Source: Chiloscyllium plagiosum (taxonomy: Eukaryota). Taken from it: DNA of 20,000 nucleotides. The notes under the pieces are model-generated. The model was not told where the DNA came from. It worked only from the letters and a program-made list of their open reading frames with translations, and did no database searches. The stretch is from the NCBI RefSeq assembly GCF_004010195.1, contig NC_057756.1, positions 948,016 through 968,015 on the forward strand. Reading direction: 5' to 3'. A program made the position numbers and the translations under genes. Of this stretch, positions 3,311-20,000 are shown one piece after another (position 1 is the first letter of the stretch; every line of letters starts with the position of its first letter).

Positions 3311-3641
3311 GGCACAGTGGCTAAGTGGGTGACACTGCTGCCTCACAGCACCCAGAACAGTGGTTCGAATCCAGCCTCGGGTGACTGTCTGTGTGGCGAT
3401 TTCGTGTTCACTCAGTGTTTGCATTGGTTTGCTCTATTTTCTGACACAATCCAAAGATGTGCAAGTTCGGTCAATTGTTCATGCTGAATTGCCCACCGTG
3501 TTCAGGAATGTGTGGGTTAGGTGCATTAATCAGAGGTAAACGAAAGATAGGAGGAATTGATCTAGGTGGATTATTCTTCAGACCGTTGGTGTAGACTTTA
3601 TCGGTTGAATGGCCTGTTTGAGCACTGTTGGGATTCTGTGA
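3311..3641 (+). mobile_element. tRNA-derived SINE, HE1/V-SINE-like
   Basis: Pol III A box TGGCTAAGTGG (3318-3328) and B box GGTTCGAATCC (3362-3372), followed by gactgtctgtgtgg and ccaaagatgtgca core motifs. The LINE-like 3' tail ends gggattctgtga. Confidence 0.88.
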
Positions 3642-3711
3642 CATCCATCTTCTCAACTGAATCTCCAGTGTATTTTGGAATACATCATTTTCTATCGAAA
3701 GTGAGACATAT

Positions 3712-5259
3712 TAGAGTCAGGGAGACAAAGAAATAAACAGCACGGAAACAGACCCCTCCATCCAGCTCGTCCAAGGATATCAGAAATCCGAAATAATTGT
3801 TATCCCATTTGCCAGCATTTGTCCCATATCCCTCTAAACTCTTTCCATTCAAATACGTATCCAGCTGCCTTTTAAATGTTGCAATTGTACCAGACTCCAC
3901 CACTTCATCCAACAGCTCATTCCATACGTGCACCCTCTTTTTGCATGAAAATGTTGCCTCTAAAGTCCCCTTTAAATTTTTCTCCGCTCCCTACATCCTT
4001 GAGTTTTTGGAATCACGCACTTCGGTCAAAAACCTTGTGTATTTATCCAATCCATGCCCCTCAGGATTTTATAAACTTCTATGAGGTCACCCCTCAGCCT
4101 CTGACGCTGCAGCGAATGTAGGCCCAGGCTATTCAGCCTTTTCCTTTGGTTAAACCTCTCCAACCCTGGCAATTTCCTAGCAATTGTTTTTGAACCTTTC
4201 AAGTTTCACAACATCATTCTTATAGCAGAGAAACCAGAACTGCACTCAGTATTCCAATGGTGGTCTAACCAAAGTTCTGTATAGCTGCAACAAGACATCC
4301 CAACTCCTATAATAAATGCACTGACAAATAATAAAACACATACAGAATGTTTTCTTCACTATCCTATCTACTTGTCATTCCACTTTCGAAGAAATATGAG
4401 TCTGCACTAGAAGCTCTCTTTTTTCAGCAACAGACTCCAGAATCTTGTCAGGAAACAGACATTTCCCACCCTGATTTGTCTTTCCAAAATGCAGCAATTC
4501 ACATTTATCTGAATTAAACTCTATCTGCCATCCCTTTGACAATTGGCCCATTTGATCAATGTCCTGATGTATTCTGAAGTAGCCTTCTTCGCTGTTCACT
4601 GCAACTTCAGCTTTGGTAGAATGTGTAAATTAATAACCAGACCTCCTATTTCATTTCCAAATCATTTACATAAACAAAGGACCCAGCACCGATCCATTCA
4701 GCACACAGCTGGTCACCGGCCTCCAGTCTAAAAAGCAATCCTCCACGAGAAATACTCTTCTACCTTTGAGCCAGTGCTGTATTCAAATAATTAATTTTCT
4801 CTCTATTCTGTTTGATATAACATTGCTAACCAGTCTACCATGAGGAATCTTGTGAAACACCTTACTGAAGTCCATATAAATCACGTTCTCCATTCTCAAA
4901 TCATCAATCTCTTAGCTACCGCTTCAAAAAATTCAATTAAACTACTGAGACACAGTTTTCCACGCACAAAGGAATGCTGACCACTACCAATGCCAGGCTT
5001 ACCTGTCTATCATTCACTTGCATTTCCTTGCCATATTTCCTAAATAATGGCACCACATTAGCTAAACACCAGCCTTCAAGCACTTCCCCAGTAGCTATTG
5101 ATGGTGCAAATATCTCACCAAGGGTCACAGCAATCACTTCCTTAGCTAACCATAGAGTGTTAGGGTTCGCCTGATCAGGTCACGAGGTTTGATCCACCTT
5201 TATGCCTTTTAAGACGTCCAGCACCTTCTCCTCTGTAATATGGACATTTTTCAAGATGT
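3712..5259 (-). mobile_element. CR1-clade LINE 3' fragment (RT and 3' UTR), same family as 120-3182, in inverted orientation
   Basis: The reverse complement of ~5190-5259 matches 1540-1610 (acatcttgaaaaatgtccatattaca...). Minus-strand ORF fragments give WCLANVVPLF, WQIEFNSDKCELLHFGK and VWNELLDEVVESGTIATFKRQLD. The 3' tail tgactcta is at 3712. There is an internal deletion near 4970. Confidence 0.93.
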
Positions 5260-5655
5260 TGTTATTTATTTTAGTTTTGGCAAAACATTTTCGAATGCAT
5301 TTTTGTCTGAAGGCTTAGCATTCTTGTTCGTTACTTAAAACAAATTAAAATATAGAGAGAAACTGTGCAAAATTTGCCAATTTTAATCTAGCCATCATAT
5401 TTGAGCATTGCTTCATTTTTTTTGCCGACCAAGTATGTGAATAACTCTGAGATCCAACAATGAGCTGCATTCCTCCACAACGATATACCAGTCTCAGTTA
5501 CAATATGCTTGTCATCATTCAAGTATGAGCCTTTATTATAATATTGCATTGTCATGATATTCAGGGCAACTTTTAATATGAGAATAACTAATGAGGTTAA
5601 ACTTCTTTCATACAATGATTATTGCAGTGCATTAATCCATTTGTGTCCCTGTTAG

Positions 5656-5682
5656 AACAACAAATGAACAAGAAAGACAGAG
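5656..5682 (+). CDS. Putative 27-nt micro-exon (phase 1-1), x-QQMNKKDR, of an unidentified coiled-coil gene
   Basis: ttgtgtccctgttAG|AACAACAAATGAACAAGAAAGACAGAG|GTaatg. Its length and phase match the other micro-exons. Confidence 0.72.
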
Positions 5683-6333
5683 GTAATGATATTCAGCTAT
5701 GCCGTAATTCTTCACTTCTTAACAGTGGATAATCTGAAGTAATCTAAGGATTTGGAGCGTATGACAAAATATTCCATCCAACGTTGATATGGTTATTAAG
5801 TAAATGCAATTGTAAGAGAAACCTCGGTCATCTGCCTTTCAAAGGAGAATTGAATTTAATGTTAAATCAAAATTGAGAGATGATTTGAAATGACCATTAT
5901 GAGACGTTTAACTCAAAACTGCATATGAAGGAAATAGTTGAACTGGTGAAAAGTTGGTTGTCATAGTGTATTTCTTTTTAAGTTTATTGCCAAAAAAAAA
6001 CAAGATCATATCCATTCCTGTTTTCTTCTGTGGAATATACCACCAAAACCGAGATACTGAGACAATCAGTAATAACATTTGAAGTGTATGCAGCTTACCT
6101 TGTAGAAGTAGAAATGGAAGTCAGAAACAAATCATTTAATGTGTTTTTCTATTATTCTGTTAATTCGTTTTGGAAGTAATCCAATAAACAACTCTGTATC
6201 AACATTTTTTCTGCGGTGCGCGAGGTGTTTTATTTTCTCTGTATCTATCCTGTGGAATGCACAGATAGAAGGCACATTTTCATTAACCTGCAGTTAACAT
6301 TAACCCTCTGTTTTGTTCTACATCCACCGTTAG

Positions 6334-6369
6334 AACTGGAAAAGTTAAGGAAGAAGCTTCAAGATTGTG
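6334..6369 (+). CDS. Putative 36-nt micro-exon (phase 1-1), E-LEKLRKKLQDC
   Basis: Pyrimidine-rich acceptor ctgttttgttctacatccaccgttAG and donor TG|GTgaga. It encodes heptad-pattern leucines and resembles the exon at 14917. Confidence 0.8.
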
Positions 6370-6838
6370 GTGAGAATGGATTTGCTTTAAAGCATGCTGC
6401 TTCTTTTTTCGTCTTGAACTCTAAATATTATTGTAATTATTTTTGGGCTAATTCATCAATTTCTTCTTGCCTGAAGTATAATGATGCGAGAAATATGAAA
6501 CTGCTCTAGTCAGGAGCCAGTGCCAATCTAGTCTGCAATGTAAAGTTTCAATCCATTTAAAGTTCTATTAAAGTGATCTGAAGTTAATGTCTGGTGCCAA
6601 AATGACACCAATTCACCAACGGTTTTGCTTCAGGCTATAGACATCCCAGATGAACTGAATACAAAACTGCTGACATTAGCGGATGAAAATGTGAATTTAA
6701 ACGTTAAAAAGCATTAGATATATAAGTTCAATTTAAAAAGATAGATTTCACAGACTTCTCTCCCACTTCCGTGATAGTTGATCTAATTGTGGTTTTTCAG
6801 AAAATTTGAAAATTTCACAAGTTGATCGATTATATGAG

Positions 6839-7033
6839 GAGAAAGTGAGGTCTGCAGATGCTGGAGATCAGAGCTGGAAATGTGTTGCTGGAAAAGCGCA
6901 GCAGGTCAGGCAGCATCCAGGGAACAGGAGAATCGACGTTTCGGGCATAAGAAGGGCTTATGCCCGAAACGTCGATTCTCCTGTTCCCTGGATGCTGCCT
7001 GACCTGCTGCGCTTTTCCAGCAACACATTTCCA
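6839..7033. mobile_element. Young non-autonomous Penelope-derived inverted-repeat insertion
   Basis: Perfect 78-bp inverted repeat (6874-6951 and 6957-7034, loop aaggg), flanked by the perfect direct repeat gatcgattatatgag (6824-6838 and 7034-7048). It shares ctgcagatgct, caggcagcatcc and gacgttt motifs with the Penelope-like terminus at 15572-15700. Confidence 0.85.
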
Positions 7034-7640
7034 GATCGATTATATGAGTCAGCTTTACTATTCAGAAGGGGACACAATGTATCTTGTTCTGGCAATCAGT
7101 CATATAAAGTAAAATGATAAATTTTGCAAAACTAACACGTTGTAAAATCAATCATAATTCAGCTAACTTTCACTAAACTTTATTAATCTGCTGTCGCCTT
7201 CTTTGTCCAATGGTGTTCCTCCTTAAGCAATTGGACAATGTTTTTTGATTTTTGATTTCATGTCACGCAAATGCCTTTTCCCAGCCTACCTCGATAATAT
7301 CTTTAAGCTACATAGTTAACCAAGGTACCTACTTCAAAATCACTTGAGAGCAGTTTAATTGTGAAGCAACTGGAAATCTTCTGTTTAGTTCTGCAGTTAA
7401 CAAATATGAAATGTTATCTACAAGAGTTTCTGATCCACAGCCTCTCCTTTACTGATGACAATGTTCATTCAAACATGTCAAATTGACCAATATGTTGTTA
7501 TATAAGCTGACGTGGCTCGTAGTTAAATTATATTTACTACTTCCTCCTGTGGACCTTGAATACTTAATTTTATTTAAGAAAAACTATGTAGCCATAAGTT
7601 TTATTGGAATTGACTTCAGTATCAATAATATCCCTCTTAG

Positions 7641-7667
7641 AACAGAAATTAATTTCAGATGAGAAAG
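7641..7667 (+). CDS. Putative 27-nt micro-exon (phase 1-1), E-QKLISDEK
   Basis: atccctcttAG|AACAGAAATTAATTTCAGATGAGAAAG|GTaagt, a consensus donor. Confidence 0.8.
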
Positions 7668-8957
7668 GTAAGTGTGTGCATCAATTTAATTCTTTAACTG
7701 ATTTGAAACCCTCAGAATCTTCCAAAACTGGATGGATAAGCAGTTGAAATGTCATATAATTAAAGGCTAAGGACCACGTGCTGCAAAATGGGTCTGGTGT
7801 GGATTATTCTCCCTCCTTATTGGAACTTGCTTTCTGATCAAATATTCATTTACAGTTTCCAGGTTTTTTCTTGTTTGCGCCATAAAACTGCATATTATAA
7901 CTATAGCGGATAATCCATTAGATTGATCTGAAGCTTATGCACCAAAGAAGAATAGATTACTTCGATATTTGTCGCAATTATTACTCATGAACACTGATGT
8001 TGTTAAATGGTGGTTAAATCAATCTTCACCAATGCATTGTTTTGCAAATGCTGCAGCCGTTTACCGTTCTGCATGTCTGATAGTAAGCTTCATCTAGTAA
8101 CGTTTCCTTCCGTGAAGATGTTCTAGGTCCGAAGTATCAAGATGGTTATACAACACTCCTTTCTATCTATACAAAGAAAAGCATAGATCTTCATTTGGGG
8201 ATGCCACGAGTACACATCAAACTATACATAAACGCAACGTGTTTACCTACCAGCAACAATACAATTGAATAAAACCCTGGGAAATATTTACGTGCATTGA
8301 CTGAAATTCGTTCAAACATAAAATGGAATTGACATAAGTGCTTGAAAATATGTCTCCTTTTCTTTCTCCTCCACACAACGTCATCTCAGTTATCCCATAT
8401 GGATGCCGAAATTACTGACAAACTTTTAAATTATAAGTAAAATGATCAACATGCGATTAATTTGATAAATCTGTCAAGAATGTCATGACAGCATTATGAT
8501 AGGAACATGTTTCCACTTGTCTGTTGCATGCAATTATTCTATAATAACGTCCAGAAGTAGATCCACATTAATTTCACAATATATTTCCTTTGAGAAATAT
8601 CCTTATACGACTCTTGGAACCCTTGATAAGGAGCACGATCTTTTGTATACCCCCTAAAAGTATATTCTACTTCACTACATACTAAATATAATATCTCTGT
8701 GGATCAAGAATGCCTCTGATCACACCTTCAGAAAAAAAACTGTTAGAAAACAATGAGATCAAGCGGCTTCCTTTCACTTGTTCATCTCCTTGCTTACATT
8801 TACCGTTAAGATACTTCAGTGATGACCCTACTACCAGCCAATCCTGCACCCAGGCAATTAGAATGGTTATTGTATTCAGGAAAAATGGCGTTACAAAACC
8901 CTGTGAAATGAGTATTCCACTATTGTCGAAACATTTTTAATTCAGGACTTACGATTA

Positions 8958-9680
8958 ATAATAGAGCCCTGGGCAGTGTTGTTAGAGACCTAGAGTTTCA
9001 GGTATACAGTTCCTTGGAAGTGGAGTCACACATAAAAGAGGATGGTGCTGAAGGCATTGCCATGCTTGCCTTCATTGCTCAGAACATTAAGTATAGGAAT
9101 TGGGGTGTCAGGTTTCGGTTCTACACTACATTTCTCAGGTCGCATTAACAGTAGTGTGCACAGTTCTTGTCATCTTGCTATAGGAAATGTATTCTTTATT
9201 GGAAGGAATGCAGGAAAGATTTACATGGACGTCACCAGGACTGGAGAGCTTCAGAACTAACGCGGGACTGGATAGGCTGGGACCTTTTTTTTGGTCAGGA
9301 GCATAGAAGATTAAGAGGCGAACTTAAAGATGTTTATAAAATCATGAGGGGCAGATATGATATAAATAGCGAAAGTTCTTTTATGTTTTCCCTGCGGGTA
9401 GGGAGTTCAAATCTATAGGGCATAATTTTGACGAAGTTTTTAAAGGGGACCTGTGAGGCAACATTTTCACACAGAGTGTGGTTGTATGTGTATAAACTGC
9501 CGGTGGAAGTGGGTGATGCACGGACAGTTCCGAGATTTCAAAGACATTTGGGCAGGTATTCGAATAGGAACGTTGTGAGAGTACAGGCCAAACGTAGAGT
9601 AATGGGAGTAGTTTAGTTTGGAAATCTGATCGGCATGGACAAGTTGGACTGAAGGATATGTTTCCTTGCTGTAGGACTTA
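8958..9680 (+). mobile_element. Older CR1-clade LINE 3' fragment
   Basis: It shows degenerate ORF2 C-terminal motifs (EHRRLRGELKDVYKIMRG, FSHRV, KLPVEV, FQRHLGRY). The 3' UTR ggcatggacaagttggactgaagg...tttccttgctgta is homologous to ~3117-3160. Confidence 0.88.
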
Positions 9681-10617
9681 ATGAATTGAAACTAATCTTC
9701 TGTTCACCTCTGTCATCTTTGTCTATCCATGAGGCGCTGTTGAAACTTCTGTTTTACAGAGACATTCATGGAAAATTGCTGTCTTACATGTTTTGTTTTA
9801 AACATGTTCATTGAGTGCAGATTGATAAAATGGTAAAATGTTAGCTTGAATTTGTCTTGCTTTATTGTATGCAATGAAACGTCTGTGAGGAGTGTTTTGC
9901 ACTGTTTGGTACATGTCAGCGCTGGTAAATCGGTCAGTATAGACACAAAAAGGCTCTTTCCACAGCATTGAAAAAATTGAGCACCAAAGTTAAGTTACGA
10001 GATAAGTGGTTGCTGACTGTCAAATTGGGAGGTATATTTATTGAAATGGAATGATATGTTTAGAAGTCTGCAGCTTGATGTTTGGAACTATATCTAAGTT
10101 TCAGAAAAATAATGAAGCTGACTTTTGGCTTTTTTCGGGTGCTGGGTCAAGTAGGCCAGACCATGTAAGAATAGCAGATTGTATTTCCAGAAGTGAACCA
10201 CATGAGTCCGTAGAAAAATTATTGATCATGGTCACAATCATTAATAATCATTTCTGCTTGTTCTTGTTTTAAACGACTGAAGGTGGTTTAAAGTTGGAAT
10301 GAATTTCAAATACAATATGATCTCATTTCGTTGGATAATATTATCATAAGATATTATTAAGTGGAAGTGTTGAACTACAAAAGTAAAATTTAGGTTAATT
10401 TTATACTGGATGTAGAACACAAGCAAGGCTTTCCATTCTTGAATTTATTCAGCTCCCTGCTAATGGCGTACAGAGAGTTAGTACATTGCAAAATAAAATA
10501 ATTCTTTACAGGGTCTCGTGACTCTCTTGGCTGTAAAGAAAAGCTTCACTAATAGTATTAACGACTTCAATTATGTCTTTCAATTTTATGACGATGAACG
10601 TTTACTGTTAAATCTAG

Positions 10618-10644
10618 GAATGAAGACTCTTAACGAAACGAAAG
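10618..10644 (+). CDS. Putative 27-nt micro-exon (phase 1-1), G-MKTLNETK
   Basis: ttactgttaaatctAG|GAATGAAGACTCTTAACGAAACGAAAG|GTctgt. It contains an N-E-T sequon. Confidence 0.62.
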
Positions 10645-11039
10645 GTCTGTCTGTGTTTTGTTTGCAAAAAATCAGTATATTTGATCATTAAACACAATTG
10701 CTTTTCATTGAGTTTCAGTGCCAGCATCTGCAGATTTGATTTGAAAAAGTGGCTCTTCCTGGTCAACCAGGCTGTTGTGTCTGATACCTAAGTCGTACTT
10801 ACAGTGCAATATGCTGCAGCATGGCAATAATGGAAGGTACCATGTGTTAATCATTAGAGTCGAGAGCAATACTTTTGACCATAACTATTTTTCATTTTCT
10901 TTAATCAGTACGTTTAAGCAGTGTAAATAAAACCTGTCACAGTGCAGTTCATTACATTATAATAAGCATCAACTATTAGTTGCAGTGACCAATTTATTAA
11001 ATTGCTTGCACCCAAAAGATATGTTTTCCGGATTGCCAG

Positions 11040-11700
11040 ATTTTTCTCTCATCTGCTCTAAGCACTGATCTTAAATCAATGCCCCCGGACTTAAAATCCT
11101 CCTTCCTGTTAATCCTGTCCCATTTCAATTTTCTCTCCTTTATGGAAGACAAATCCCATCAGTCCAATCTCTCTTCGTAACTGGAACTGTCCTTCACAGA
11201 CGACATTTTAATAAATCGCCTGTGCACCTTCTCCAGTGCTATCCCAACCCTCCAAACAATGTGACTTCCAGCACTGCACAGAATGCTTCAACTGTGGTGG
11301 AGCTAACGTTGTCTACAGTTCCAGTATAGCCTTGTAGTTCACAGACTCCTTGCCTCAGAGAATAAAGGAAAGTCTTCCATATTTCTTCTTAATGATGATA
11401 ACGTCCTATCTTGAACTTTAAGGAACTGCTTTAGATAAAAAGAAACTAAGTTTTCTGTATTCTTCGCAGTTTCCCAGGGCATTAATATTAAGCATACATT
11501 CTCTTATCTTTCTCTTTCCAGCTAAAGTGCATCGGCTCATATTGATCTCGATTGAATTCTGTTTTCCACTGATTAGCACGTTTTATTAGTCCGAATTTTG
11601 TTATTTGTTTGCTGTGTCGTCCAAATAGTCGTCCTTTGCCTTTAGTTTTACCTTTCCAAGGAATCCAGTTCAAATATGTCCGCACATTCTTGTGTTTGCA
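11040..11700 (-). mobile_element. Highly degenerate CR1-like LINE RT remnant (approximate boundaries)
   Basis: The minus ORF 11488-11685 contains ANQWKTEFNRDQYEPMHF, which resembles CR1 W(Q)MEFN.DKCEVMHF. The reverse complement of ~11220-11330 resembles the PQLEYCVQFW and LEKVQRR regions. Confidence 0.65.
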
Positions 11701-11923
11701 AAGTACCTTTCATTCAATTAACGTTTTGGCTGCAATGTTTTATTTCAATTTACTACAGCAAAATGTCATCTCAGTCAATTAAACTTGACACTAAGCCAAT
11801 TACATTATTGATATTTATGGGGTGTTCATTTCATGTTTCTTTTAACCAATGCAACCTAATCGTTTGTGCTTTTGCATCTAAGAATGTTACTTCATTTAAA
11901 TCGGTTACAATCATTTTAAATAG

Positions 11924-11950
11924 ACGATCAACTGTATAAGTTACAGCGTG
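11924..11950 (+). CDS. Putative 27-nt micro-exon (phase 1-1), D-DQLYKLQR
   Basis: tcattttaaatAG|ACGATCAACTGTATAAGTTACAGCGTG|GTaagc. Confidence 0.75.
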
Positions 11951-12184
11951 GTAAGCACCACTTTCTCTTTGAAGTCTGAATATGCTGTAGCAAGCAAATT
12001 GACTTCTTGATAATATATTGTCTAACTAAAATGAATTACTAAATGTCATGGTAGTTGTGAATGAAATTAGTAAGGTGCTCATTTATCTCAAAGTAAACAA
12101 GCATACAAACAAACTCGGAGTTTAATCATAGTTGCCATAATGCCTGTTCTGTAATAGCTGAGAACTTCAGAACTTTGAAACATA

Positions 12185-12560
12185 CCAAAGGGAGTGCAGC
12201 AGAGCTTCACTAGGTTCATTCATTAGAAACCAAGACTTTTCTAGGAACGAAGCTTATTGCAACAGGACCTGGTTTTACGACACTTTACAAGGATGAGACA
12301 GTACAAGGATGAGACTGTAGATTCGAAGCAACAAGATCATTTCCCTGGTTGTACAATCTAGGACTGTGAATGCATTCTCAGGAAAAGATGTAGGCCAGGT
12401 TGAAACTGAGAAAGGAGGACACAAGAGCAGAGAATTAAATAAAAAGAGAGAAAGCAACTTTAAGGCAACTCATTTAAGTGCACCAGAACTTCTGGATTGT
12501 AATATAAAAGAATGATGGGTTATTAAATCAATTATTGATTACAAATATATAACTGAAAAT
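12185..12560 (+). mobile_element. Possible very old CR1-like 3' remnant
   Basis: gggagtgcagcagagcttcactaggttcatt resembles GVQRRFTRLI, and ggaggacacaag resembles RGH. The rest is weak. It contains a local duplication tacaaggatgagac (12286-12299 and 12302-12315). Confidence 0.4.
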
Positions 12561-12707
12561 AAATAATTGTAAAACAAGCAGGCAGCTAATAGCATTCCAA
12601 CATTGAGAACAGAGGGAAATAGACAGGAGCTTAGCCCTTGAAAGTCAAAGCTGGAGGAAAACATGTTTGGTGCATCATGTGATTTTTTTTTCTTCAACTA
12701 AAACCAG

Positions 12708-12734
12708 GAGAAAAGCATTCCAGTAACGGGGAAA
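12708..12734 (+). CDS. Possible additional 27-nt micro-exon (phase 1-1), G-EKHSSNGE
   Basis: Strong acceptor gatttttttttcttcaactaaaaccAG and donor AA|GTgagc. It is exactly 27 nt and open in phase 1, but it is not heptad-like and ends in A rather than G. Confidence 0.5.
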
Positions 12735-12790
12735 GTGAGCAAGAAACTATTCTGATTTAACAACCCATTCCCCTCTTCTCACATATGGAA

Positions 12791-13130
12791 GCACGGTCAC
12801 TCAGTGGTTAGCACTTATGCCTCACAGTGCCAGGCACCAGGAGTAATCCCACTGTTGATTGACTGTCATGGAGTTTGCACATTTTCCCCATGGCTGTGTA
12901 GGCCTTCGGTGGAGGTTCTGGTTCCCTCCCAGAATCTAAAGAAGTGTAGGTCTGTTAGATTGGCCATGCTAATCTTTCCGTAGTGTGCACGGATGTACAA
13001 ATCAGACGGATTAGCTATGGTGAGTACAGTGTTACGGAGTTAAGGTGGTAGTCTCATGGGATGCTGCTTGGGCAATTGTTTCAGAATCAATGGACAGAAT
13101 AACCTCTCTCCACTCTATTGGGATCCTATG
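12791..13130 (+). mobile_element. Diverged HE1-like tRNA-derived SINE
   Basis: The head gcacggtcactcagtggttagcac...gcctcacagtgccagg and the core ggagtttgcacatt and attggccatgcta are homologous to 3311-3641. It ends gggatcctatg, and the B box is decayed. Confidence 0.82.
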
Positions 13131-13334
13131 CTGCCCTAAACTTCTTATTATCCACAACAGGCTCTGAATGTAAAAAGTCGATTGAGTACGCAGCAAATTG
13201 ATCTGGTGGTGATTAGTTGTTAAAAAAAAAACAAAAAAAATGGCTTCCAGTGATTTGATGAAGAGACAAACAACAGCCATTCAGTCGTGTTCGAGAGTTC
13301 TTCTATATACTTTTTTCAAAAGAACAACAAAATC

Positions 13335-13570
13335 AAGTTGGCTATTAAAAATTCCAGGTAGTGTGCTACGGAGACTGTCATTGCTGGTGAATATCAACAG
13401 CTCTTCAATGGCTATGCTTGTGCCCGGGTGTCCTTCAACAACTAGCATGCGGTCGCCACCAAGACTCTTGGTGCCTTTAGACAAAGGTGGACCCCATAGC
13501 AGATGGAGTACTTTATCTCTCTGTCCAACTCCATCTTGATTTAGCTCCCTCTCCCCTCCCACCTCTCTAC
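13335..13570 (+). mobile_element. Tx1/L1-clade LINE ORF2 extreme C-terminal remnant
   Basis: Frame 13335-13544 reads KLAIKNSR*CATETVIAGEYQQLFNGYACARVSFNN*HAVATKTLGAFRQRWTP*QMEYFISLSNSILI*. This resembles the Tx1-type ending (KLAI..SR / F.GY.RARVS / F..RW.P / NSILI*) and is followed by a pyrimidine-rich 3' UTR start. Recognised from memory. Confidence 0.68.
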
Positions 13571-14916
13571 CTCTGCCTCTCGCGTTATAATTTGCGCTGA
13601 CCTTAATGGACTTTGCACATTAGTTACATAATTGCAAATAAAATGATTTCGTGATGGGCATTAAATTATAAAGGAGAAAAAAAGCACCAGTGATTTTGCG
13701 ATTAAAAAAATACAGATTGTCTAAAAAAAAGTAAAGGATAAACATAAATCTGGAAAGATTAAGACATTTTGTCAAATAACATTAAATACTTCAATAACCT
13801 ATCACCCACGGAAACAATAAGTGAAGAAATCAGCAGCATTAAATCATGGGCAAAAATGGTGGAATAGGTTGGAAATGAGAAAGGCATATGATGCATGCTT
13901 ACTTCATAATTTTTAATGGTGTTTGAAAAAAAGCATGAGCAGGGTAAATGTTAGTGAAAGCGTAGAAAGGAGAGGCAATGGATGGAGTAAACGATGAGGC
14001 AAGGTATGGGGAAATGCTGGCTAAGACCATGTTGGATGAAACCTCCTACTCAGGTGGCTCACACCTACATTTGGCAAAGGGATTGGTTTGGTAAAAGCAG
14101 GAAGTTTTCTTATAAAGTCAATACATTTCAAAGTTACTACGGGCTGCGGGTGAACATTGCTCATTGAAACATTAGATAACCGAAGCTCCAAAAAGAAAGG
14201 ACAGGACAATCCAAAAGTGTTAAGAATTAGAGATCATTCATTTTGTCCTCAGTTTCATGCGAGAATTTTTTTTTTTAGAAAAAATGAGTTAAAGCTTAAC
14301 ATTTATTTGGAGAACGTTGAGTTGATGAAGAATACAAAGATTTGAACTGTAAAAGTTATTTCTTTCTTAATTAGCTCAGTTGATTTTTTTTTATTTACCC
14401 TAACTATATTGACATCATAGACGATGCTTACATGGATCTGAAAAAGAATATATTTAGTGCAGTTATTCATAAGAGGTTAATTAACAATGCACTTCGGGAT
14501 TTTCGCAGAGACCGGAAGTTGTAGCTTATCAACCATATTAATATTGTGATCTTTGGAGAGTAATTCATTTCCTGAATATACCACCGTTCCATCAATTCAC
14601 GTGGGCAAGATGCCTGGAGCTCTCTTTAAAAGCATTGAGGGTGCCCCAATCAAATAATTCTCCAGTTGTTGACTCATGGGGTTGGCGATGCAGAGACTGC
14701 TTAGATTTAAGTAAACTCGTGGATTTAGACAAAGATGGACCCCACTTGCGAAAGTTTCACCCTATTTATAATTACAGATTAACAGTCTGTAATTTAGCTG
14801 TTTGGTCATGATCAAGTTAAGAGACCAAGACAGTTCAAATTGCTTTGCCCAGTGCATTGTCAGTGTTTCTTAAATCTTCCTAATCTAACTCAATGTCAAT
14901 GCCTTCATTGCATCAG

Positions 14917-14952
14917 AAAGCGAATCCCTGAAAAAGAAGATTCAACTTTTAG
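14917..14952 (+). CDS. Putative 36-nt micro-exon (phase 1-1), E/K-SESLKKKIQLL
   Basis: A branch-like ctaac lies upstream. The acceptor is gccttcattgcatcAG and the donor is AG|GTaagg. It resembles the exon at 6334. Confidence 0.8.
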
Positions 14953-15154
14953 GTAAGGAAATGTTTGGAACTTCTTTGGTCTATGTTACAAACCAATTAA
15001 CGTAAATGGATTAAAAAAGGAAATGTCACTTCTAAAAGCTTGGTTTGTGAATGTCATTCTTGGAGATTTTCTGGTAGATCTTATTTGGAAAGTAACAAAT
15101 GGTGTACAAATGTTATAATAACAGAATACTATTGAAATTCTGTGCCAACATCAG

Positions 15155-15181
15155 AAGAGAAACTGAAAGAGAAAGAGAAAG
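15155..15181 (+). CDS. Putative 27-nt micro-exon (phase 1-1), E-EKLKEKEK
   Basis: ttctgtgccaacatcAG|AAGAGAAACTGAAAGAGAAAGAGAAAG|GTaaat. It resembles exon 7641 (EQKL...EK; both end GAGAAAG). Confidence 0.78.
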
Positions 15182-15267
15182 GTAAATGAAAAGATGCAGT
15201 TGCATTCCGTGCTCTCTTCCATCTGAATTTCGACGATTGCTTAAACACTCCTGTAATTGTGCTTTAG

Positions 15268-15294
15268 AAATTAAAGCTAAAGTCTCAGATGATG
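15268..15294 (+). CDS. Putative 27-nt micro-exon (phase 1-1), E-IKAKVSDD
   Basis: taattgtgctttAG|AAATTAAAGCTAAAGTCTCAGATGATG|GTgagt, a consensus donor. The preceding intron is 86 nt. Confidence 0.8.
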
Positions 15295-15571
15295 GTGAGT
15301 AGGAATTAATTATGAAGGAAAACATGTACTGACACCGATGGTAATCACAATTCAACTGAAAATTAAACATCATGCTGGAAGTTTCCACACTTCAAGAATA
15401 TTGAAAGTGAAAGAATGCTTTGCGGTGTGCCTCACTAAAAGCTTCCTGGCTCTGATAAAGTAATGATTACTCTTTTTTGGTCAGATTCATTAATCCACAA
15501 GTATTCAGGAGCGATTCTTCGAAGTTACACCTGATGAAATGTTAACCACAACAAAGAGTCTAACGTTGGAG

Positions 15572-16345
15572 CAAATAACTGCAGATGCTAGAATTTGTAC
15601 CGAAAGCAAAAATAAATACAAGAGTTCACAGCGGGGCAGGCAGCATCCTTCGAGAGAGAGCAAGCTGACGTTTTGAGTCTGGGTGACTCTTCATCAGAGT
15701 TGAACTGAAGTATGGAGGAGGCAGCACTTATGCAATACTGGTGAGGGAATTGGAGTGTTGGGGGAGAAAGGATGTTAACAGTTCAGATTTAGTGATCGAA
15801 ATGTAAGAAGGGCAGAACAACGGTGTCTCTAACTGCCAGACTGGCAAGAATATGCCGTCCCACTGGAGTGGGGGAAGGGAAGAGGGGCATGGTTACAGAG
15901 AATGTAACAAGCAAAGCTGAAGGAAGGGGAACGAATGTTTTCAGAATCTGAAGGCGTTCAACTCAATGTTTAGACCAGAAGGTTGTAAAGTGTTTTGCTG
16001 GAGCATTTCAAGAAGAGACAAGTTGCATGAGCGCAGAACACTGTATTACATTGACTGGCATTGGGACGATCACAGTTATGCTTGCATACAGACTGGAGGT
16101 GTTCTGCAAACGGGTCATCCAGTATGTGTTTCGTTTCTGCAATGAAAGTCGGATGATTGGGTGCAGCGAATCCAATACAAAAATTGGAGAAGGTGTAGTT
16201 GAAATGGTGCATCACCCAGAAACATTGTTTGGGGCATTGGATTGTGAGCAGGGAGGATGTGAAAGAGCAGTTGTTGTACCTTCTGCGATTATATGAGAAG
16301 ATGCTGTGGGAAGGGGTGGGATTGTTGGTCGAGGAGTTGACACCT
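15572..16345 (-). mobile_element. Penelope-like element 3' fragment: degenerate GIY-YIG endonuclease C-terminus plus terminal repeat region
   Basis: Minus-strand translation gives NRRRYNNCSF..LTIQCPKQ.F....F..T.SN...IAETK..L.D.FAEHLQSV, ending PSGLNIELNAFRF* near 15941. This is typical of the linker and GIY-YIG domain of vertebrate Penelope/Poseidon elements. A hammerhead-like motif lies downstream. Confidence 0.85.
15662..15702 (-). ncRNA. Degenerate minimal hammerhead ribozyme motif in the Penelope-like terminus
   Basis: The minus strand reads CUGAUGA-A-GAGUC-accca-GACUC-AAAAC-GUC-ag. The CUGANGA core and a 5-bp stem II are intact, while GAAA is mutated to AAAA. Confidence 0.7.
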
Positions 16346-16775
16346 AATGTTAAAGTATTATCCACAAGGTTGTATTTCTACAGGTTGTAGGAATCACTGA
16401 CTCCTTCCCTCCAAAGTTAATCTTTCCTACTGACTGTATAGCAGTTCCTTAGTAGTGCAATATATTTTACATCTGAATTCTTGATCCCAAGGCAGGTCAA
16501 ATGAACTAACATTTTTTTTATGTCAGAGGCCAGTGTATGAAAGCGTGATCCATACTTGACAATATGTATGTTACAATGAATTGTTGCATTTATGTAAAGG
16601 TTGGATCAATAAAGTATGGATAATACAGTAGAAAGATAAAAGGAACGGAAGGTCTGTGTGGAAACAACGGTATATCAGCAAATGTTTTCCTAATTTTTGC
16701 TTCTATGGTTGTTGTTGACATGTCGGAATGTGAAGTTCACCTCAACGTATTATATTTCACTTTGTCAATTTGCAG

Positions 16776-16802
16776 GAGAGGCGCTACGTGAAAAGAACTC
16801 AG
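16776..16802 (+). CDS. Putative 27-nt micro-exon (phase 1-1), G-EALREKNS
   Basis: tttcactttgtcaatttgcAG|GAGAGGCGCTACGTGAAAAGAACTCAG|GTaagt, with both sites strong. Confidence 0.82.
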
Positions 16803-16830
16803 GTAAGTTATTGACCGATTGAGTTCTGAT

Positions 16831-17501
16831 TGTTATGACACGAGGTAAAACCGTCTGCTAATTTAAACCAGACACACTGAAAATCTCACTTCACCTCATA
16901 ATTTGTTAAACTACAGGTGACAGAAATCTAGCAAAATTCCCCTATTTAAAGAAAAAAAATCAACAATTTATCCTTTAACTCCAAAAACGAACATTAAATA
17001 ACAACTATCTACACTTTATCCTTTGTGTGATAAATTAATCTACCTCCTACTCGAAAACAATATGCTGATCCGATAAAATCCCCGATCTACCCTTTGTATA
17101 TTCCTGGATCTTTCCTTTGGTCTTCTGCTGCTCAGGTGTTTCATATGAAAAGGTACCTTTCAGAGAGTGGGTCTGCGGGCAGTCTGATTGCTGCTCTTTG
17201 TCTCACTCTGGCTAATTGTTCAAAATGCCTGATTTTTATACCCAAAACATTGGATGTTCTCATTCGTATAATATCACCAAAATACTAAAATTCTAATTCG
17301 ATTGGGTTTTAGTATCTTGGACATAATTTAAACTAATTGGCTAAATTCAAATTGTTGTGTAACATAGCAACTCAGCTCAATTATTTGTTTCACAGCTAAA
17401 TGTCATATTTTCATATTTTCCAGCACACTTTCTGCCTGTTAGGTCCTTTGCGAGCTTTCACACTCTCTTAAAGATACAGTACACGTCTGTATATCATAAC
17501 A
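16831..17501 (-). mobile_element. Probable solo LTR (671 bp)
   Basis: Termini TGTTATGA...TCATAACA form a TG..CA-bounded 8-bp inverted repeat. The flanks ctgat (16826-16830) and ctgaa (17502-17506) look like a 5-bp TSD with one mismatch. Minus-strand TATAAAAA near 17233-17240 suggests the orientation. Confidence 0.7.
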
Positions 17502-18109
17502 CTGAATTGGAGTTCCTGACAGCTAAATAGATATTTGCTAAATAATCACTTTGTTGAATGGAATCCACCACCATATATTTTTTGGATACTTAACATCCGA
17601 ATCAAATTACTTTTCTGGCTACCAGGACTTTATATTTAAAGTAGATGAAAGTGTGATCAAGTTACTTACTAAATGAATACAATCATAAGATTTCACGGCA
17701 TTGAACATTTTAATATAATAATTATTAAGCACCATTAATTTTAATATACACCAACAGAACAACGTAAGAAACGACAATATATAAATAAAGTGTATTGTAG
17801 CACCTCAGATTGTATAGCAGACTAATACAACAGACAAACAATTGTCCTATGCTTCACTTAATGGATGCAACAGAATTCTAAATACAGTCTCACATCACTA
17901 ACCCAGAATGGCTACCCAGCCTCTACGAACACTCCCAACCTCCTACCTCCAAACAAATACATAATCACACGCAGAACTCTATGACATTAGTGAAATTGTC
18001 GTTCACCAAATCGCATTATAAATTTGTGAAAGAATCAGATGCTGTTAAATTGTCACTGTGTCATAATGACATAGAACCTGTAACAATATTCTTTAATGTT
18101 TGCAACAAG

Positions 18110-18290
18110 AGACTTCCAAAATCAAAAGGCATAATTTAGGAATTAGGGGTAATCATGCAGAAATAACATCAGAGACATTTCCCTTACTCAGAGAGATGTG
18201 ACTTTCTTTTCAATTCCTAACCCTGATGGTATTTGAGGATTCATTATTGTGCATGTGTCACAGAAAGATTAACACACTTCTCTGATAAGG
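18110..18290 (+). mobile_element. Possible very old CR1-like 3' remnant
   Basis: aaaaggcataatttaggaattagggg and cttactcagagagatgtg resemble the RGH.L.IRG / FTQRVV region of CR1 ORF2 ends. Confidence 0.4.
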
Positions 18291-18365
18291 ATCAGACAAT
18301 TGATAACAACAACAGATTATCTATTAAATACACAACGTGATTTTAAATTTTATGCTTTTTTTCAG

Positions 18366-18457
18366 CAGCAGAGCCTTTTTTTGTCGGGATGACGTTGGCT
18401 TCTGTCATTCTCTGTTTTGCAACTTCAATACAACGTAATCCAGCAATTGTTCTTTAA
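18366..18457 (+). CDS. Candidate terminal exon, A-AEPFFVGMTLASVILCFATSIQRNPAIVL*, a hydrophobic tail (TM segment or GPI signal)
   Basis: Strong acceptor ttttatgctttttttcAG. The phase-1 frame continuing from exon 16776 is open, gives an uncharged hydrophobic run of about 18 aa, and ends TAA TGA (18455-18460). Confidence 0.55.
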
Positions 18458-18554
18458 TGACATGTGAACATTTTCAAATTATCTAATTATACGTTTGTAC
18501 CATGCCTGACTATCGTTGCAGATGGATAATTAGCATGTAAGATTTGAGGCCCAG

Positions 18555-19281
18555 ACATACTAGGCAATGACTGCCTCCAGCAAGGTGAATGTAGCCATCA
18601 GCACTGAACATTCAGTGGCATCAACAGTCAATCACTAACATCACACTGCAGATCACATTCACAAGACACTGGAACAGATTGTTAATACAATTGCTGTTCC
18701 TATAAAATGAGGTCAAAGATTTGGAGTCTTGAAGAGAGTACTTCTCACTGAATCTAAAATGTTCATCTATCGTCTACAGTGTACAAATCAGGAATGTGAT
18801 GGATGAATCTGCTCTTGCTTGCTTGAATTTATTTCCAGCAACGGGGAAGTCTGACATCATCCAAGACAAAGCGACTGCTTGATTAACATCAAATATGCAA
18901 GCATTGACTCTGTCCACCATGAACGCTCAGTAATAGCAGCAGTGTTTACTGTCTACATAATGTAGTGCACAAATAAACCAATGCTTTTTAGAAAGCGTCT
19001 CCTAAACACATCATCACGACCCTCTTGAAAGACAGGGCCAGTGGATAGATGCGAACACCATGAACTGCGAAGTTTCATCCAAATTTGTTAACATTTCGAT
19101 TTGTAGTTCATCAGCATTGCTTAAGTGTTGTTCAATCGAAACTTTCCAATGACCTTGTAGGTCTACACTCAGGAAATATCCCACAGCGCTTCAAGAACAC
19201 TGGTCACCATACATATTCAATCACAACTGAAGATTGGCAATAAACGTGGACCAGCCAGAAACGTCCCTATTCTGTCAATGA
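18555..19281 (+). mobile_element. Decayed non-LTR retrotransposon 3' fragment (L2/CR1 superclade, distinct from the HER1-like family)
   Basis: Recognised segments include caaatcaggaatgtgatgga, catccaagacaaagc, ccaccatgaacgctcagtaatagcagcagtgtttactgtctac and the 3' end ggcaataaacgtggaccagccag...caatga. No ORF is intact, and the clade call is tentative. Confidence 0.65.
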
Positions 19282-19369
19282 TATTGCTTTTTTTTCGTTA
19301 TTTTAAATGCAAATTAACTAGGAATGGAATCAAACTACGACACTTACTTGGAGATGCCAATCTCTGAGT

Positions 19370-20000
19370 ATTATGTAGACAGGCCTACAAAGGGCGAAGT
19401 CACTTTAGATTTAGTACTGGGTAATGAACCTGGCCAGGTGTTAGATGTGGAAGTAGGTGAGCACTTTGGAGACAGCGATCACAATTCTGTCAAGTTTACT
19501 TTAGTGATGGAAAGGGATAGGAGTACGCCACAGCAAGAGTTACAGCTGAGGGAAGGGAAATTACGATGCAATTAAGAAAGATTTAGGAAGTGTAGAATGG
19601 CGAAGGAAACTGCAGGGGATGAGCACATTAAAAATGTGGAGCTTATTCAAGGAAAAGCACCTGTGTGTCCTGGATAAGTATGTACCTGTCAGACAGGGAG
19701 GAAGATATAGAACGTGTGAGCCGCGGTTCACTAAGGAAGTGAAACCCCTGGTCAAGAAGAAGAAGAAGGCTTATGTTAGGACAAAATGTGAAACCTCAGG
19801 GCGCTTGCGGGTTACAAGGAAGTCAGGAAAGACTTAAAAAGAGAGCTCAGAAGAGCCAGGAGGAGACATGAGAAGTTGTTGGTGGATAGGATCAGGGTCA
19901 ACCCTAAGGCTTTCCATAGGTATGTCGGGAATAAAAGAATGACGAGAACTAAATTAGGGCCAATCAATGATAATAGTGGGAAGTTGTGTGTGGAGTCAGA
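19370..20000 (+). mobile_element. 5'-truncated CR1-clade LINE ORF2 (end of endonuclease and linker), running off the window end
   Basis: YVDRPTKGEVTLDLVLGNEPGQV, VGEHFGDSDHNSV (the APE SDH motif), then MWSLFKE, P.FTKEV and NPKAF.RYV. It is frameshifted. Confidence 0.92.

Follow-up and report, generated by a model that had tools for sequence, protein, structure and literature searches.

Nine short segments in a 20,000-nucleotide stretch of Chiloscyllium plagiosum DNA (the window) are, with a probability of about 80% as judged from sequence, successive internal exons of a single, very large plus-strand gene that would encode a long coil ending in a SPRY domain (coil-SPRY). Nearly all of this gene would consist of symmetric micro-exons in phase 1-1, 27 or 36 nt long and about 100 in number; the nine represent less than a tenth of the gene.

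Anatomy of the window exons

The first-pass annotation had proposed nine segments as micro-exons of a hidden gene encoding a modular coiled coil. When these were checked directly on the plus strand, each was found to be preceded by AG, followed by GT, terminated by G and open in phase 1-1. The lengths of 27 or 36 nt were confirmed (seven segments of 27 nt, and two, at 6334 and 14917, of 36 nt), and the proposed peptides were reproduced by reading from the third base of each segment. The segments are as follows, with the scores of their acceptor and donor sites.

5656..5682, plus strand: micro-exon EQQMNKKDR, 27 nt, phase 1-1; acceptor/donor 4.6/6.0
6334..6369, plus strand: micro-exon ELEKLRKKLQDC, 36 nt, phase 1-1; acceptor/donor 2.0/8.2
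7641..7667, plus strand: micro-exon EQKLISDEK, 27 nt, phase 1-1; acceptor/donor 3.8/11.6, donor GTAAGT
10618..10644, plus strand: micro-exon GMKTLNETK, 27 nt, phase 1-1; acceptor/donor 1.5/5.3, donor GTCTGT
11924..11950, plus strand: micro-exon DDQLYKLQR, 27 nt, phase 1-1; acceptor/donor 1.1/8.8, donor GTAAGC
14917..14952, plus strand: micro-exon ESESLKKKIQLL, 36 nt, phase 1-1; acceptor/donor 5.9/9.5, donor GTAAGG
15155..15181, plus strand: micro-exon EEKLKEKEK, 27 nt, phase 1-1; acceptor/donor 1.6/7.1; class B archetype
15268..15294, plus strand: micro-exon EIKAKVSDD, 27 nt, phase 1-1; acceptor/donor 1.7/10.1, donor GTGAGT
16776..16802, plus strand: micro-exon GEALREKNS, 27 nt, phase 1-1; acceptor/donor 7.9/12.5, donor GTAAGT

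The opening codon of EQQMNKKDR takes its G from the preceding exon. Exon 6334 represents a 36-nt class that recurs, E-[LI]-x-x-[LC]-[KQ]-x-x-[LV]-x-[ED]-x, and can be aligned with 23 further 36-nt exons of the surrounding array, positions 2, 5, 9 and 12 being hydrophobic; exon 14917 was also placed in the 36-nt class alignment. Exon 7641 belongs to the class E-E-K-L-x-x-K-x-K and shows three mismatches to the class-B DNA pattern. The best splice sites of the window are those of exon 16776, which has the upstream look-alikes ETDLEQKDS and DEETREKDS.

The class-B pattern is matched exactly at only six places in the 3.56-Gb genome; exon 15155 is one of them, and five of the six lie within three arrays on the same contig (C47). 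Exon 15155 is 85% identical over 34 nt to an exon at -128575, the similarity covering the exon and its splice sites only. This was the sole exception when the 300 nt around each exon were compared across 290 kb, all others being single-copy. The claim that the exons are located outside repeats is thereby confirmed.

Splice sites and the chance background

By the bare criterion of an open AG-(27|36)-GT segment, 90 were counted in the exon frame of the plus strand of the window, 84 and 101 in the two other plus-strand frames and 62-64 in each minus-strand frame. Splice sites were scored with a weight matrix whose frequencies came from recall and not from a tool, the peptide being ignored. In this scoring, the nine segments ranked 1, 3, 4, 5, 6, 7, 9, 10 and 15 of 90, the last and weakest being exon 10618, and they stood apart from the 79 other scanned segments (Mann-Whitney p = 1.4e-6).

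With a joint criterion (splice sum of at least 6.5 plus at least 37% E/K/R/D/Q, thresholds picked after the nine had been seen), 10 segments were retained in the exon frame of the window, 3 and 5 in the other plus-strand frames and 0, 0 and 1 on the minus strand; in 200 first-order Markov simulations the count averaged 0.93 and peaked at 4. As regards their density in background DNA, such segments are therefore common by the bare criterion, and it is the conjunction of splice strength and composition that exceeds chance.

A micro-exon array ending in a SPRY exon

The window is part of a larger array. A catalogue, whose thresholds were fixed after the data had been seen and in which overlapping candidates were settled by hand, comprises 72 micro-exons of the same kind over 255 kb of the plus strand: 44 of 27 nt, 25 of 36 nt and only three of 21 nt. 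Within 290 kb, a splice score of at least 9 together with coil-like composition was found on the plus strand for 34 segments of 27 nt and 22 of 36 nt, and on the minus strand for none of either length. Exons of this type reach back at least 472 kb from the 3' end, with essentially none beyond the SPRY exon. The gene would end at C47:995,039 and begin at C47:522,958 or still further upstream, a span of at least 472 kb. Genome-wide, the class-B pattern occurs at 73 places with at most one mismatch; 21 of these are on C47 (0.3% of the genome), in three arrays, and all 21 have the same orientation as the closest SPRY exon of the subfamily. The class-C pattern, at two mismatches or fewer, has 8 of its 11 places on C47.

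The 3' end of the array, 30 kb beyond the window, is made up of the following exons (window coordinates).

41805, 42804 and 43969, plus strand: three 21-nt exons, followed by a 36-nt exon and then the SPRY exon
46504-47024, plus strand: SPRY (B30.2-like) exon, intact; Pfam SPRY, E 1.7e-16

The acceptor of the SPRY exon is in phase 1, compatible with exons ending in G, and the 36-nt exon that would precede it in the transcript is a conserved one containing tryptophan. The Pfam PRY model gave no match at E <= 0.01, and the SPRY domain is about equally identical (34-38%) to those of butyrophilins and TRIM proteins. With the 178-aa Chiloscyllium punctatum protein chiPu_0007878 the SPRY exon shares 98% identity, 170 of 173 residues matching. 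In that protein only MLISR precedes the SPRY domain, and the corresponding ATG mini-exon is intronic here, at 44733; the annotated bamboo-shark protein of the locus thus represents the last exon only. Joined together, the 72 catalogued exons and the SPRY exon give 890 stop-free codons, partly by construction because every exon was chosen as open. The claim that ORF-based annotation cannot see this gene is supported by the strand-specific array leading into an in-phase SPRY exon, by the block differences between homologues and by the last-exon-only annotation.

A family in cartilaginous fishes

Two paralogues of the same build are present on the same contig. In one of them, 59% identical, the exons before the SPRY exon encode ELEKKLRDSSNE (36 nt), DSPKKDS (21 nt) and DWNDASKHK (27 nt), the counterparts in the present gene being ELEKKLQESCGE, DSKEKES and (HS)DWRDVKRNK.

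Homologues were found in other species, as automatic predictions under misleading names (RefSeq XP and other models). For the elephant shark, Callorhinchus milii, there are two RefSeq models, XP_042192744.1 (1697 aa, 'nuclear-pore anchor-like') and XP_007898089.1 (1722 aa, 'myosin-2 heavy chain-like'), holding about 1450 coil residues in one protein; the former consists of a long coil and a C-terminal SPRY domain with the end ISIV, as in the shark gene. The two models differ by 12 length changes, four of 9 aa, four of 12 aa and single ones of 18, 16, 10 and 3 aa. In the present gene the motif E[LIVM]xxC[QKRE] is found 6 times over 717 aa, and XP_042192744.1 has 7 copies; the remaining collected proteins, 114,268 aa in total, have 5. 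The postulated modular coil of 9- and 12-residue units is borne out by these block differences and motif counts. A blastp search with the spliced coil matched only XP_042192744.1 (E 1.8e-8) and a skate member (E 4e-6). In the skate model, ...SDWDTIKNNK is joined to the SPRY exon exactly as predicted for this gene. Further members are Leucoraja XP_055510696.1 ('TRIM69-like'), Scyliorhinus XP_038668997.1 ('TRIM39-like') and Narcine XP_069775384.1 ('A33-like'). Cassette differences of 6, 7 and 9 residues separate isoforms in Narcine and Callorhinchus, and the shortest and longest family members have 178 and 1722 aa. A search with the N-terminal 247 residues of the Callorhinchus protein had no match on this contig.

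In a tree of 27 SPRY/B30.2 domains, selected by ourselves among the search matches, the 11 coil-SPRY rows form a cartilaginous-fish clade (support 100/100, branch 0.64) apart from butyrophilin and TRIM domains. Common to the family are this single SPRY clade, the C-terminal ISIV, the ELxxCQ motif, the modules of 9 and 12 residues and, ahead of the SPRY domain, an exon with tryptophan; the gene belongs to this chondrichthyan coil-SPRY family. A literature search retrieved no study of cartilaginous-fish coil-SPRY proteins.

The predicted rod and the use of its exons

The joined exons would form a Pro-free, K/E-rich alpha-helical rod with a hydrophobic repeat of 3.5 residues, that is, a coiled coil. 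The joined coil of 717 residues contains no Pro and 42% K+E, and its hydrophobic period peaks at 3.48-3.54 (z 8-13 against residue shuffles). Periodicity and composition agree with the E/K-rich product of 3-4 hydrophobic spacing first described. The genomic order of the 72 exons was equalled by 1.3% of 1000 shuffles, and that of the nine window exons by 0.25% of 2000. The joined product of the nine holds one heptad register, with L or M at heptad position 4 in eight of its nine first heptads.

The coherence of the local chain, 2.01 with all exons, falls when any one of seven of the nine window exons is removed: among others, to 1.50 without 5656, 1.21 without 6334, 0.95 without 7641, 1.10 without 10618 and 1.27 without either 11924 or 14917. 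The inclusion of exon 10618 is therefore favoured in spite of its rank. Without exon 15268 the value is unchanged (2.04), so the periodicity test is neutral on this exon; without exon 16776 it rises to 2.65, and a register break or a missed neighbour is therefore possible there.

Because all exons are multiples of three in one phase, skipping, duplication or unequal crossing-over would alter rod length without a frameshift. This part of the first-pass proposal on symmetric exons holds; the heptad register, on the other hand, is shifted by single-exon skipping. Indeed, 27 and 36 nt are not heptad lengths, and the loss of one exon moves the register by 2 or 5 residues. The register is kept only when a 36+27 pair goes (21 residues, or three heptads), the reading frame being kept in either case.

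The rod would be expected to oligomerise and to hold the SPRY ligand-binding domain far from the opposite end, which in the elephant-shark and skate homologues carries a short N-terminal hydrophobic segment, possibly a membrane anchor or signal peptide.

It is possible, if rather unlikely, that the exons are real but serve as a menu from which each mRNA takes a cassette or mutually exclusive subset, the nine not normally being joined in series. The symmetry of every exon would suit such use, as would the 6-, 7-, 9- and 12-residue blocks by which relatives' isoforms and model versions differ and the spread of family members between 218 and 1722 aa. However, heptad coherence is higher for the genomic order than for shuffled orders and is lowered on dropping any of seven of the nine window exons, as expected if adjacent exons are used together; the elephant-shark models, moreover, include their coil residues all at once.

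Improbable, in our estimation, is a decaying relic whose transcription or splicing was lost in this lineage, leaving the nine as pseudo-exons. No RNA run is listed as containing the stretch, the reads and contigs compared with the exons, a weak test, gave neither depth nor joints, the close relative's only annotation of the locus is the 178-aa last-exon model, and some exons, such as 10618, have weak splice sites. Against decay, AG/GT, frame and coil-like composition are retained in every one of the 72 catalogued exons, whereas the flanks of the window exons are matched nowhere else in the array. In addition, the SPRY exon is intact, three paralogues share the build and the heptad register is continuous across exons. 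Splicing of these exons in Chiloscyllium plagiosum is predicted.

Comparison with known gene designs

The comparison with butyrophilin and chicken BG genes made in the first-pass annotation is apt as to design, although the SPRY phylogeny places the gene in neither group. BG genes encode a long coiled coil from tiny symmetric exons, its length varying with exon number; these exons measure 21 (sometimes 24) nt, one heptad each, and the genes are compact, with IgV and transmembrane exons and without B30.2 (Salomonsen et al. 2014, PMC4046983). The shark gene likewise builds its putative coil from a long series of tiny symmetric exons, but differs from them in its 27/36-nt exons, its SPRY terminus, its span of at least 472 kb and the lack of an Ig domain in the DNA scanned. 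It does not show a BG-type cytoplasmic tail of many 21-nt exons without B30.2, there being three such exons only, with SPRY last.

Butyrophilins have IgV-IgC ectodomains, few heptad micro-exons and a B30.2/PRY-SPRY last exon (PMC4046983, PMC8813856). The shark gene resembles them in having three 21-nt exons and a phase-1 SPRY last exon, with a 36-nt exon intervening, and departs from them in its roughly 100 micro-exons, as against a short heptad stretch, and in a SPRY domain outside the joint butyrophilin/TRIM clade with PRY below the Pfam threshold. Domains were searched in 126, 150 and 132 ORFs of at least 55 aa and 144 of at least 75 aa, 11 boundary-spanning ORFs being dropped. No Ig domain was found in the plus-strand ORFs scanned from -210 kb to +80 kb, and no RING or B-box in the ORFs scanned or in the homologues. 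That this is a true butyrophilin/BG-type gene, with Ig and transmembrane exons still further upstream, is quite improbable: its 3' layout is that of butyrophilins, and the array does continue upstream of the stretch scanned for Ig, but no Ig was detected within that stretch, SPRY is the sole Pfam domain of family members in four other species, and the coil-SPRY clade stands apart.

TRIM proteins with PRY-SPRY have an oligomerising coiled coil followed by a C-terminal SPRY ligand-binding domain (PMC8813856). The shark gene shares the coil ahead of a C-terminal SPRY, and database names of family members are TRIM-like; the N-terminal RING and B-box of TRIM proteins were not found in the DNA examined or in homologues. 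TRIM coils are, besides, short and located in ordinary exons.

Schistosome micro-exon genes (MEGs) contain runs of symmetric micro-exons whose skipping produces variants without frameshift. The principle is common to MEGs and the shark gene and the lineages are unrelated; MEGs encode small secreted proteins rather than coiled-coil rods that end in a globular domain. On sequence grounds, the design of the shark gene is best described as of BG/butyrophilin type with new features: 27/36-nt exons, a giant span and its own SPRY clade.

Lastly, although 90 bare segments occur in the exon frame of the window alone, a chance origin of the nine as open AG...GT windows in A-rich intronic DNA is regarded as already refuted by the rank test, the Markov simulations (0.93 against 10 observed), the strand contrast of 56 to 0 over 290 kb, the presence of a SPRY exon downstream and the existence of paralogues and homologues.

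For a coil-SPRY gene of this build, ordinary annotation would catch only the last exon of nearly half a megabase of micro-exons. The length of the rod would be changeable without frameshift, and it is by such blocks that the isoforms and model versions of its relatives differ.

The nine segments and their chance background

Nine short segments on the + strand had been proposed by the first-pass annotation as hidden micro-exons, and all nine have the described anatomy: each is preceded by AG, followed by GT, ends in G and is open from its third base. Coordinates are counted from the window start, negative values lying upstream of the window and values above 20,000 downstream.

27-nt segments, + strand, AG/GT, phase 1-1: 5656, 7641, 10618, 11924, 15155, 15268 and 16776
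36-nt segments, + strand, AG/GT, phase 1-1: 6334 and 14917

Openness between AG and GT at these two lengths was by itself a poor, weak criterion, because such segments are common throughout the window: there are 90 in the frame of the nine, against 84 and 101 in the two remaining + frames and 62-64 in every - frame. The concern that comparable segments would be as dense by chance was thus justified for the bare 27/36-nt form, but the nine stood out by splice score. This score was obtained with a weight matrix of general splice-site frequencies, not derived from a tool, and made no use of the peptide. The nine ranked 1, 3, 4, 5, 6, 7, 9, 10 and 15, and their scores were higher than those of the 79 others scanned (Mann-Whitney, p = 1.4e-6). 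When splice score and composition were combined, with thresholds fixed post hoc once the nine were known, the frame of the nine retained 10 segments, compared with 3 and 5 for its two + strand alternatives and 0, 0 and 1 for the - strand frames; Markov simulations (n = 200) averaged 0.93 and never exceeded 4.

Within the 290 kb examined, the 300-nt surroundings of each of the nine were single-copy, with the exception of 15155, where a 34-nt exon-to-exon match was found with an exon at -128575. In the same exon, a DNA run carried T for C at 15163, which changes CTG to TTG in frame, both leucine; this single synonymous difference has no statistical weight. A transmembrane-like 69-nt segment at 18366 was considered and dropped, its donor being weak and no homologue fitting it.

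An array of like exons around the window

The window occupies positions 948,016-968,015 (+) of its contig, C47, in a 3.56-Gb assembly, and the analysis was extended to 210 kb upstream and 60 kb downstream. Like exons recur across these flanks, at splice scores of 9 or more on the + strand only. At this score and with coil-like composition, the + strand count was 34 for 27-nt exons and 22 for 36-nt exons, and the - strand count was zero for both lengths; at a score of 6.5 or more, the counts were 44 and 25 on the + strand and 3 and 1 on the - strand. The following peptide classes were recognised.

36-nt class: E-[LI]-x-x-[LC]-[KQ]-x-x-[LV]-x-[ED]-x, hydrophobic at positions 2, 5, 9 and 12
27-nt class: E-E-K-L-x-x-K-x-K
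27-nt class ending in A: E-F-E-D-F-Q-x-K-C
27-nt class: x-x-L-E-Q-K-D-x

The resulting catalogue, in which overlapping candidates were settled by hand, comprises 72 exons from -208652 to +45686. Three further + strand exons (DERLRDAKE, EIQRLRMDLKDC and EIEDLLQNI) were present in a 6-kb sample at C47:522001-528000, and the array therefore extends over at least 472 kb. A local profile HMM of the 36-nt exon peptides was powerless as a search tool.

The introns also contain mobile DNA. Two ORFs at 1629-2562 (+) match RVT_1 (E 1.4e-5 and 5.6e-9) and are retroelement fragments within the 6.2-kb intron that precedes exon 5656. Fragments of similar appearance were recognised, by eye only, at about 3500-5200 (-), 8900-9500 (+) and 19300-20000 (+), and 12 N stand in a row at 348-359.

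The SPRY exon and the 3' end

The array closes, past the window, with the following exons.

41805, 42804 and 43969, + strand: three exons of 21 nt, their splice sites very strong
45686, + strand: 36-nt exon, peptide GHSDWRDVKRNK
46504-47024, + strand: open SPRY exon of 521 nt (Pfam SPRY, E 1.7e-16)

The acceptor of the SPRY exon leads into phase 1, a property that was no selection criterion, and its GTG codon is therefore completed by the final G of the preceding exon. The 72 exons joined to the SPRY exon give 890 codons with zero stops, and in the downstream DNA examined the micro-exons cease past the SPRY exon.

Domains were also sought in the + strand ORFs lying between -210 kb and +80 kb; for the most distal 150 kb upstream, the set comprised ORFs of at least 75 aa, and 11 ORFs at locus borders were left out. 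Besides SPRY, the only cellular domain in this set belonged to a Myb/SANT-like ORF, the rest being retroelement pieces. This 206-aa ORF (+), about 62.9-63.5 kb past the window start and downstream of the SPRY exon, matches the Myb/SANT-like DNA-binding domain PF13873 (E 1.4e-10) and may be a domesticated or transposon-borne gene.

Heptad coherence of the joined product

The coil part of the predicted product (717 residues) contains no proline, 8 glycines and 42% lysine plus glutamate. The coiled-coil spacing read from the nine peptides was confirmed, with a hydrophobic period of 3.48 for the 72 exons and 3.54 for the nine alone, both at z 8-13 relative to residue shuffles. The long-range coherence of the genomic exon order, a measure of this heptad periodicity in the joined product, was matched by only 1.3% of 1000 exon-order shuffles for the 72 exons and by 0.25% of 2000 for the nine. 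When the window product was written in rows of seven, position 4 was L or M in eight of the first nine heptads, a register that spans seven exons lying kilobases apart. Removal of any single exon from 5656 to 15155 lowered the coherence; removal of 15268 left it the same and removal of 16776 raised it.

Two exons of 36 and 27 nt together encode 21 residues, that is three heptads. One exon, in contrast, encodes a non-integer number of heptads, and skipping it therefore keeps the frame and loses the register. The proposal that symmetric exons could be skipped without a frameshift was thus correct as to the frame, but a single skip would break the heptad register.

Paralogues on the same contig

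A genome search with the SPRY exon returned two closer relatives, both on C47.

C47:4577504-4578016, + strand: SPRY paralogue, 59% identical
C47:1296632-1297144, - strand: SPRY paralogue, 42% identical

The remaining matches in the genome were at most 39% identical, and most of them belonged to a large cluster of B30.2 exons on C37. In this cluster, at about 9-34 Mb, more than 100 intact exons share 50-69% identity with a butyrophilin-like protein of the elephant shark; the cluster is a very large butyrophilin/TRIM-type expansion.

The micro-exons were followed with a 31-place DNA pattern, splice dinucleotides included, for the class E-E-K-L-x-x-K-x-K (class B). Allowing at most one mismatch, it occurred at 73 places genome-wide, 21 of them on C47, which makes up 0.3% of the genome. 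The matches outside C47 belonged mostly to one dispersed repeat; those on C47 formed three runs, every one of them upstream of one of the three SPRY exons and on the identical strand.

C47:651320-970932, + strand: class-B run
C47:1445141-1565564, - strand: class-B run
C47:4329139-4395131, + strand: class-B run

A class-C pattern with at most two mismatches matched 11 places, 8 of them on C47; seven of these eight lay on the strand of their own array and one (1792840, +) on the opposite strand. In the last 10 kb before its SPRY exon, the 59% paralogue contains ELEKKLRDSSNE (36 nt), DSPKKDS (21 nt) and DWNDASKHK (27 nt), the counterparts of which in the window's gene are ELEKKLQESCGE, DSKEKES and DWRDVKRNK. 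The - strand paralogue reaches from C47:1296632 to at least 1808083, with class-B and class-C matches spread over at least 511 kb upstream of its SPRY exon, and this gene may exceed the window's gene in size.

Homologues in cartilaginous fishes

A HMMER search with the SPRY exon against 1.84 billion representatives gave 2717 matches at E <= 0.001. The best single-domain matches were 41-51% identical, and the named ones among them are predicted cartilaginous-fish proteins. One of these, XP_042192744.1 of the elephant shark (Callorhinchus, 'nuclear-pore anchor-like', 1697 aa), has a short N-terminus, hydrophobic and then basic, a coil of about 1450 residues with motifs such as ELSDCK, ELIDCQ and ELKNCQ, and a SPRY domain that ends in ISIV, as does that of the window's gene. 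This N-terminus may be a membrane anchor or a signal peptide, and the rod may lie in the cytosol or outside the cell. Relative to this protein, an older model of the same elephant-shark gene, XP_007898089.1 (1722 aa), has 12 changes of length: exactly 9 residues in four cases, exactly 12 in four, and 18, 16, 10 and 3 residues in one case each. Several of the 12-residue blocks begin with EL or EY and have C at position 5. These 9- and 12-residue differences indicate that the 27/36-nt module is common to the chimaera.

Six copies of the motif E[LIVM]xxC[QKRE] are present in the 717 residues predicted here and seven in XP_042192744.1, compared with five in 114,268 residues of all the other proteins collected. 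When the spliced coil was compared by blastp with the protein collection as it then stood, only XP_042192744.1 (E 1.8e-8, 31% over 245 residues) and the skate member (E 4e-6) were found. The skate protein XP_055510696.1 (295 aa) reads ...SDWDTIKNNK and then SPRY, the same junction as predicted here, and isoforms of Narcine and Callorhinchus show cassette differences of 6, 7 and 9 residues.

In proteins of this coil-SPRY family, Pfam recognised SPRY as the sole confident domain; Ig, RING and B-box were absent, and PRY was below threshold or without a score. When 27 domains were placed in a tree, the 11 coil-SPRY entries grouped as one clade (support 100/100), separate from the domains of butyrophilin, ERMAP and TRIM proteins. 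Searching the genome with the N-terminal 247 residues of XP_042192744.1 gave two matches, on other contigs and at E about 9, and searching it with the skate protein gave SPRY exons only.

Among proteins of 933-2970 aa, the two Callorhinchus models alone were recovered. 'Long' matches from salmonids, a lizard and a frog were rejected as relatives of the giant coil, being tandem fusions of two ordinary TRIM genes. The 632-aa protein P0110 has another architecture, in which an internal transmembrane segment is followed by near-identical coiled-coil repeats, with 63 residues among their spacings, and by a B30.2 domain of TRIM type; its place in the tree is among ERMAP-like domains, outside the coil-SPRY family.

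Annotation and transcript data

That annotation based on ORFs would be blind to this gene was borne out. The nearest database protein, 'hypothetical protein chiPu_0007878' of Chiloscyllium punctatum (178 aa), represents the last exon only, and the protein databases searched held no close homologue of 304-2000 aa. It is identical to the SPRY exon at 170 of 173 residues and starts with MLISR, followed by the SPRY exon through the same acceptor. In the window species, MLISR corresponds to an ATG mini-exon at 44733, in the intron that leads from the last of the 21-nt exons to the 36-nt exon. In all respects the model looks like one with an ab initio first exon, and the whole rod is missing from it.

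For 6851-16850, no RNA datasets were on record. Two single-cell polyA runs, a possible RNA contig set and a DNA run were aligned to 5301-19300. One polyA run (about 2% sampled) gave 908 reads, of which 906 were partial fits, nearly all on repeats; the second (about 6% sampled) gave none. The exon bins had zero depth and none of the 15 read joints displayed (of 158 in total) lay at an exon, which is no test of the prediction, since these are small, probably 3'-biased single-cell samples and the exons are of 27 nt.

Repeats accounted for two further features of the alignments. At 6702-7168, the summed contig depth reached about 1.8 million in the DNA run and was high in the RNA sets; many variant 'joints' fell at 6856-6995, in a very abundant short repeat of the intron between 6334 and 7641. 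At 13240, 104 polyA single-cell reads end and continue as a run of A, and the repeat-rich bin 12773-13239 showed depth on the opposite-mate strand; probably a transcript derived from a repeat ends and is polyadenylated here.

A proposed shark family of micro-exon coil-SPRY genes

Taken at the level of sequence, the view that the nine segments would be a slice of a giant micro-exon coil-SPRY gene is supported in substance. This predicted gene is a variation on the BG/butyrophilin design, one already represented by misnamed and unstudied predictions from other cartilaginous fishes. It shares with BG and butyrophilin genes a coiled coil built from tiny symmetric exons, one at a time, but differs from them in exon size, scale and domain lineage, and the Ig part is absent as far as the gene was read. 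Among the portions of full text returned by a literature search, no publication on the family was found.

A fuller reading, to which we tentatively give a probability of about one in three, would join these observations into a shark family of three genes on one contig, of 0.25-0.5 Mb each, with the largest micro-exon arrays known from a vertebrate. In each gene, some 100 or more symmetric 27/36-nt exons would have arisen by duplication of a 63-nt (three-heptad) unit, and the rod, more than 1000 residues long and with a SPRY sensor at its tip, would owe its length to combinatorial exon choice.

If this is true, the product would serve as a molecular ruler or tether that can be adjusted, a type undescribed for butyrophilins, BG or TRIMs. 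What is new relative to BG and butyrophilin genes is the exon sizes, the far larger scale and the separate SPRY lineage, which dates back at least to the shark-chimaera split. A half-megabase gene of about 100 exons would be nearly invisible to standard annotation, and its homologues elsewhere carry the names of myosin, nuclear-pore protein or TRIM. The family would offer a natural system in which to study the recognition of 27-36-nt micro-exons across kilobase introns and to ask whether splicing tunes the length of the rod, as well as a concrete target for the re-annotation of cartilaginous-fish genomes.
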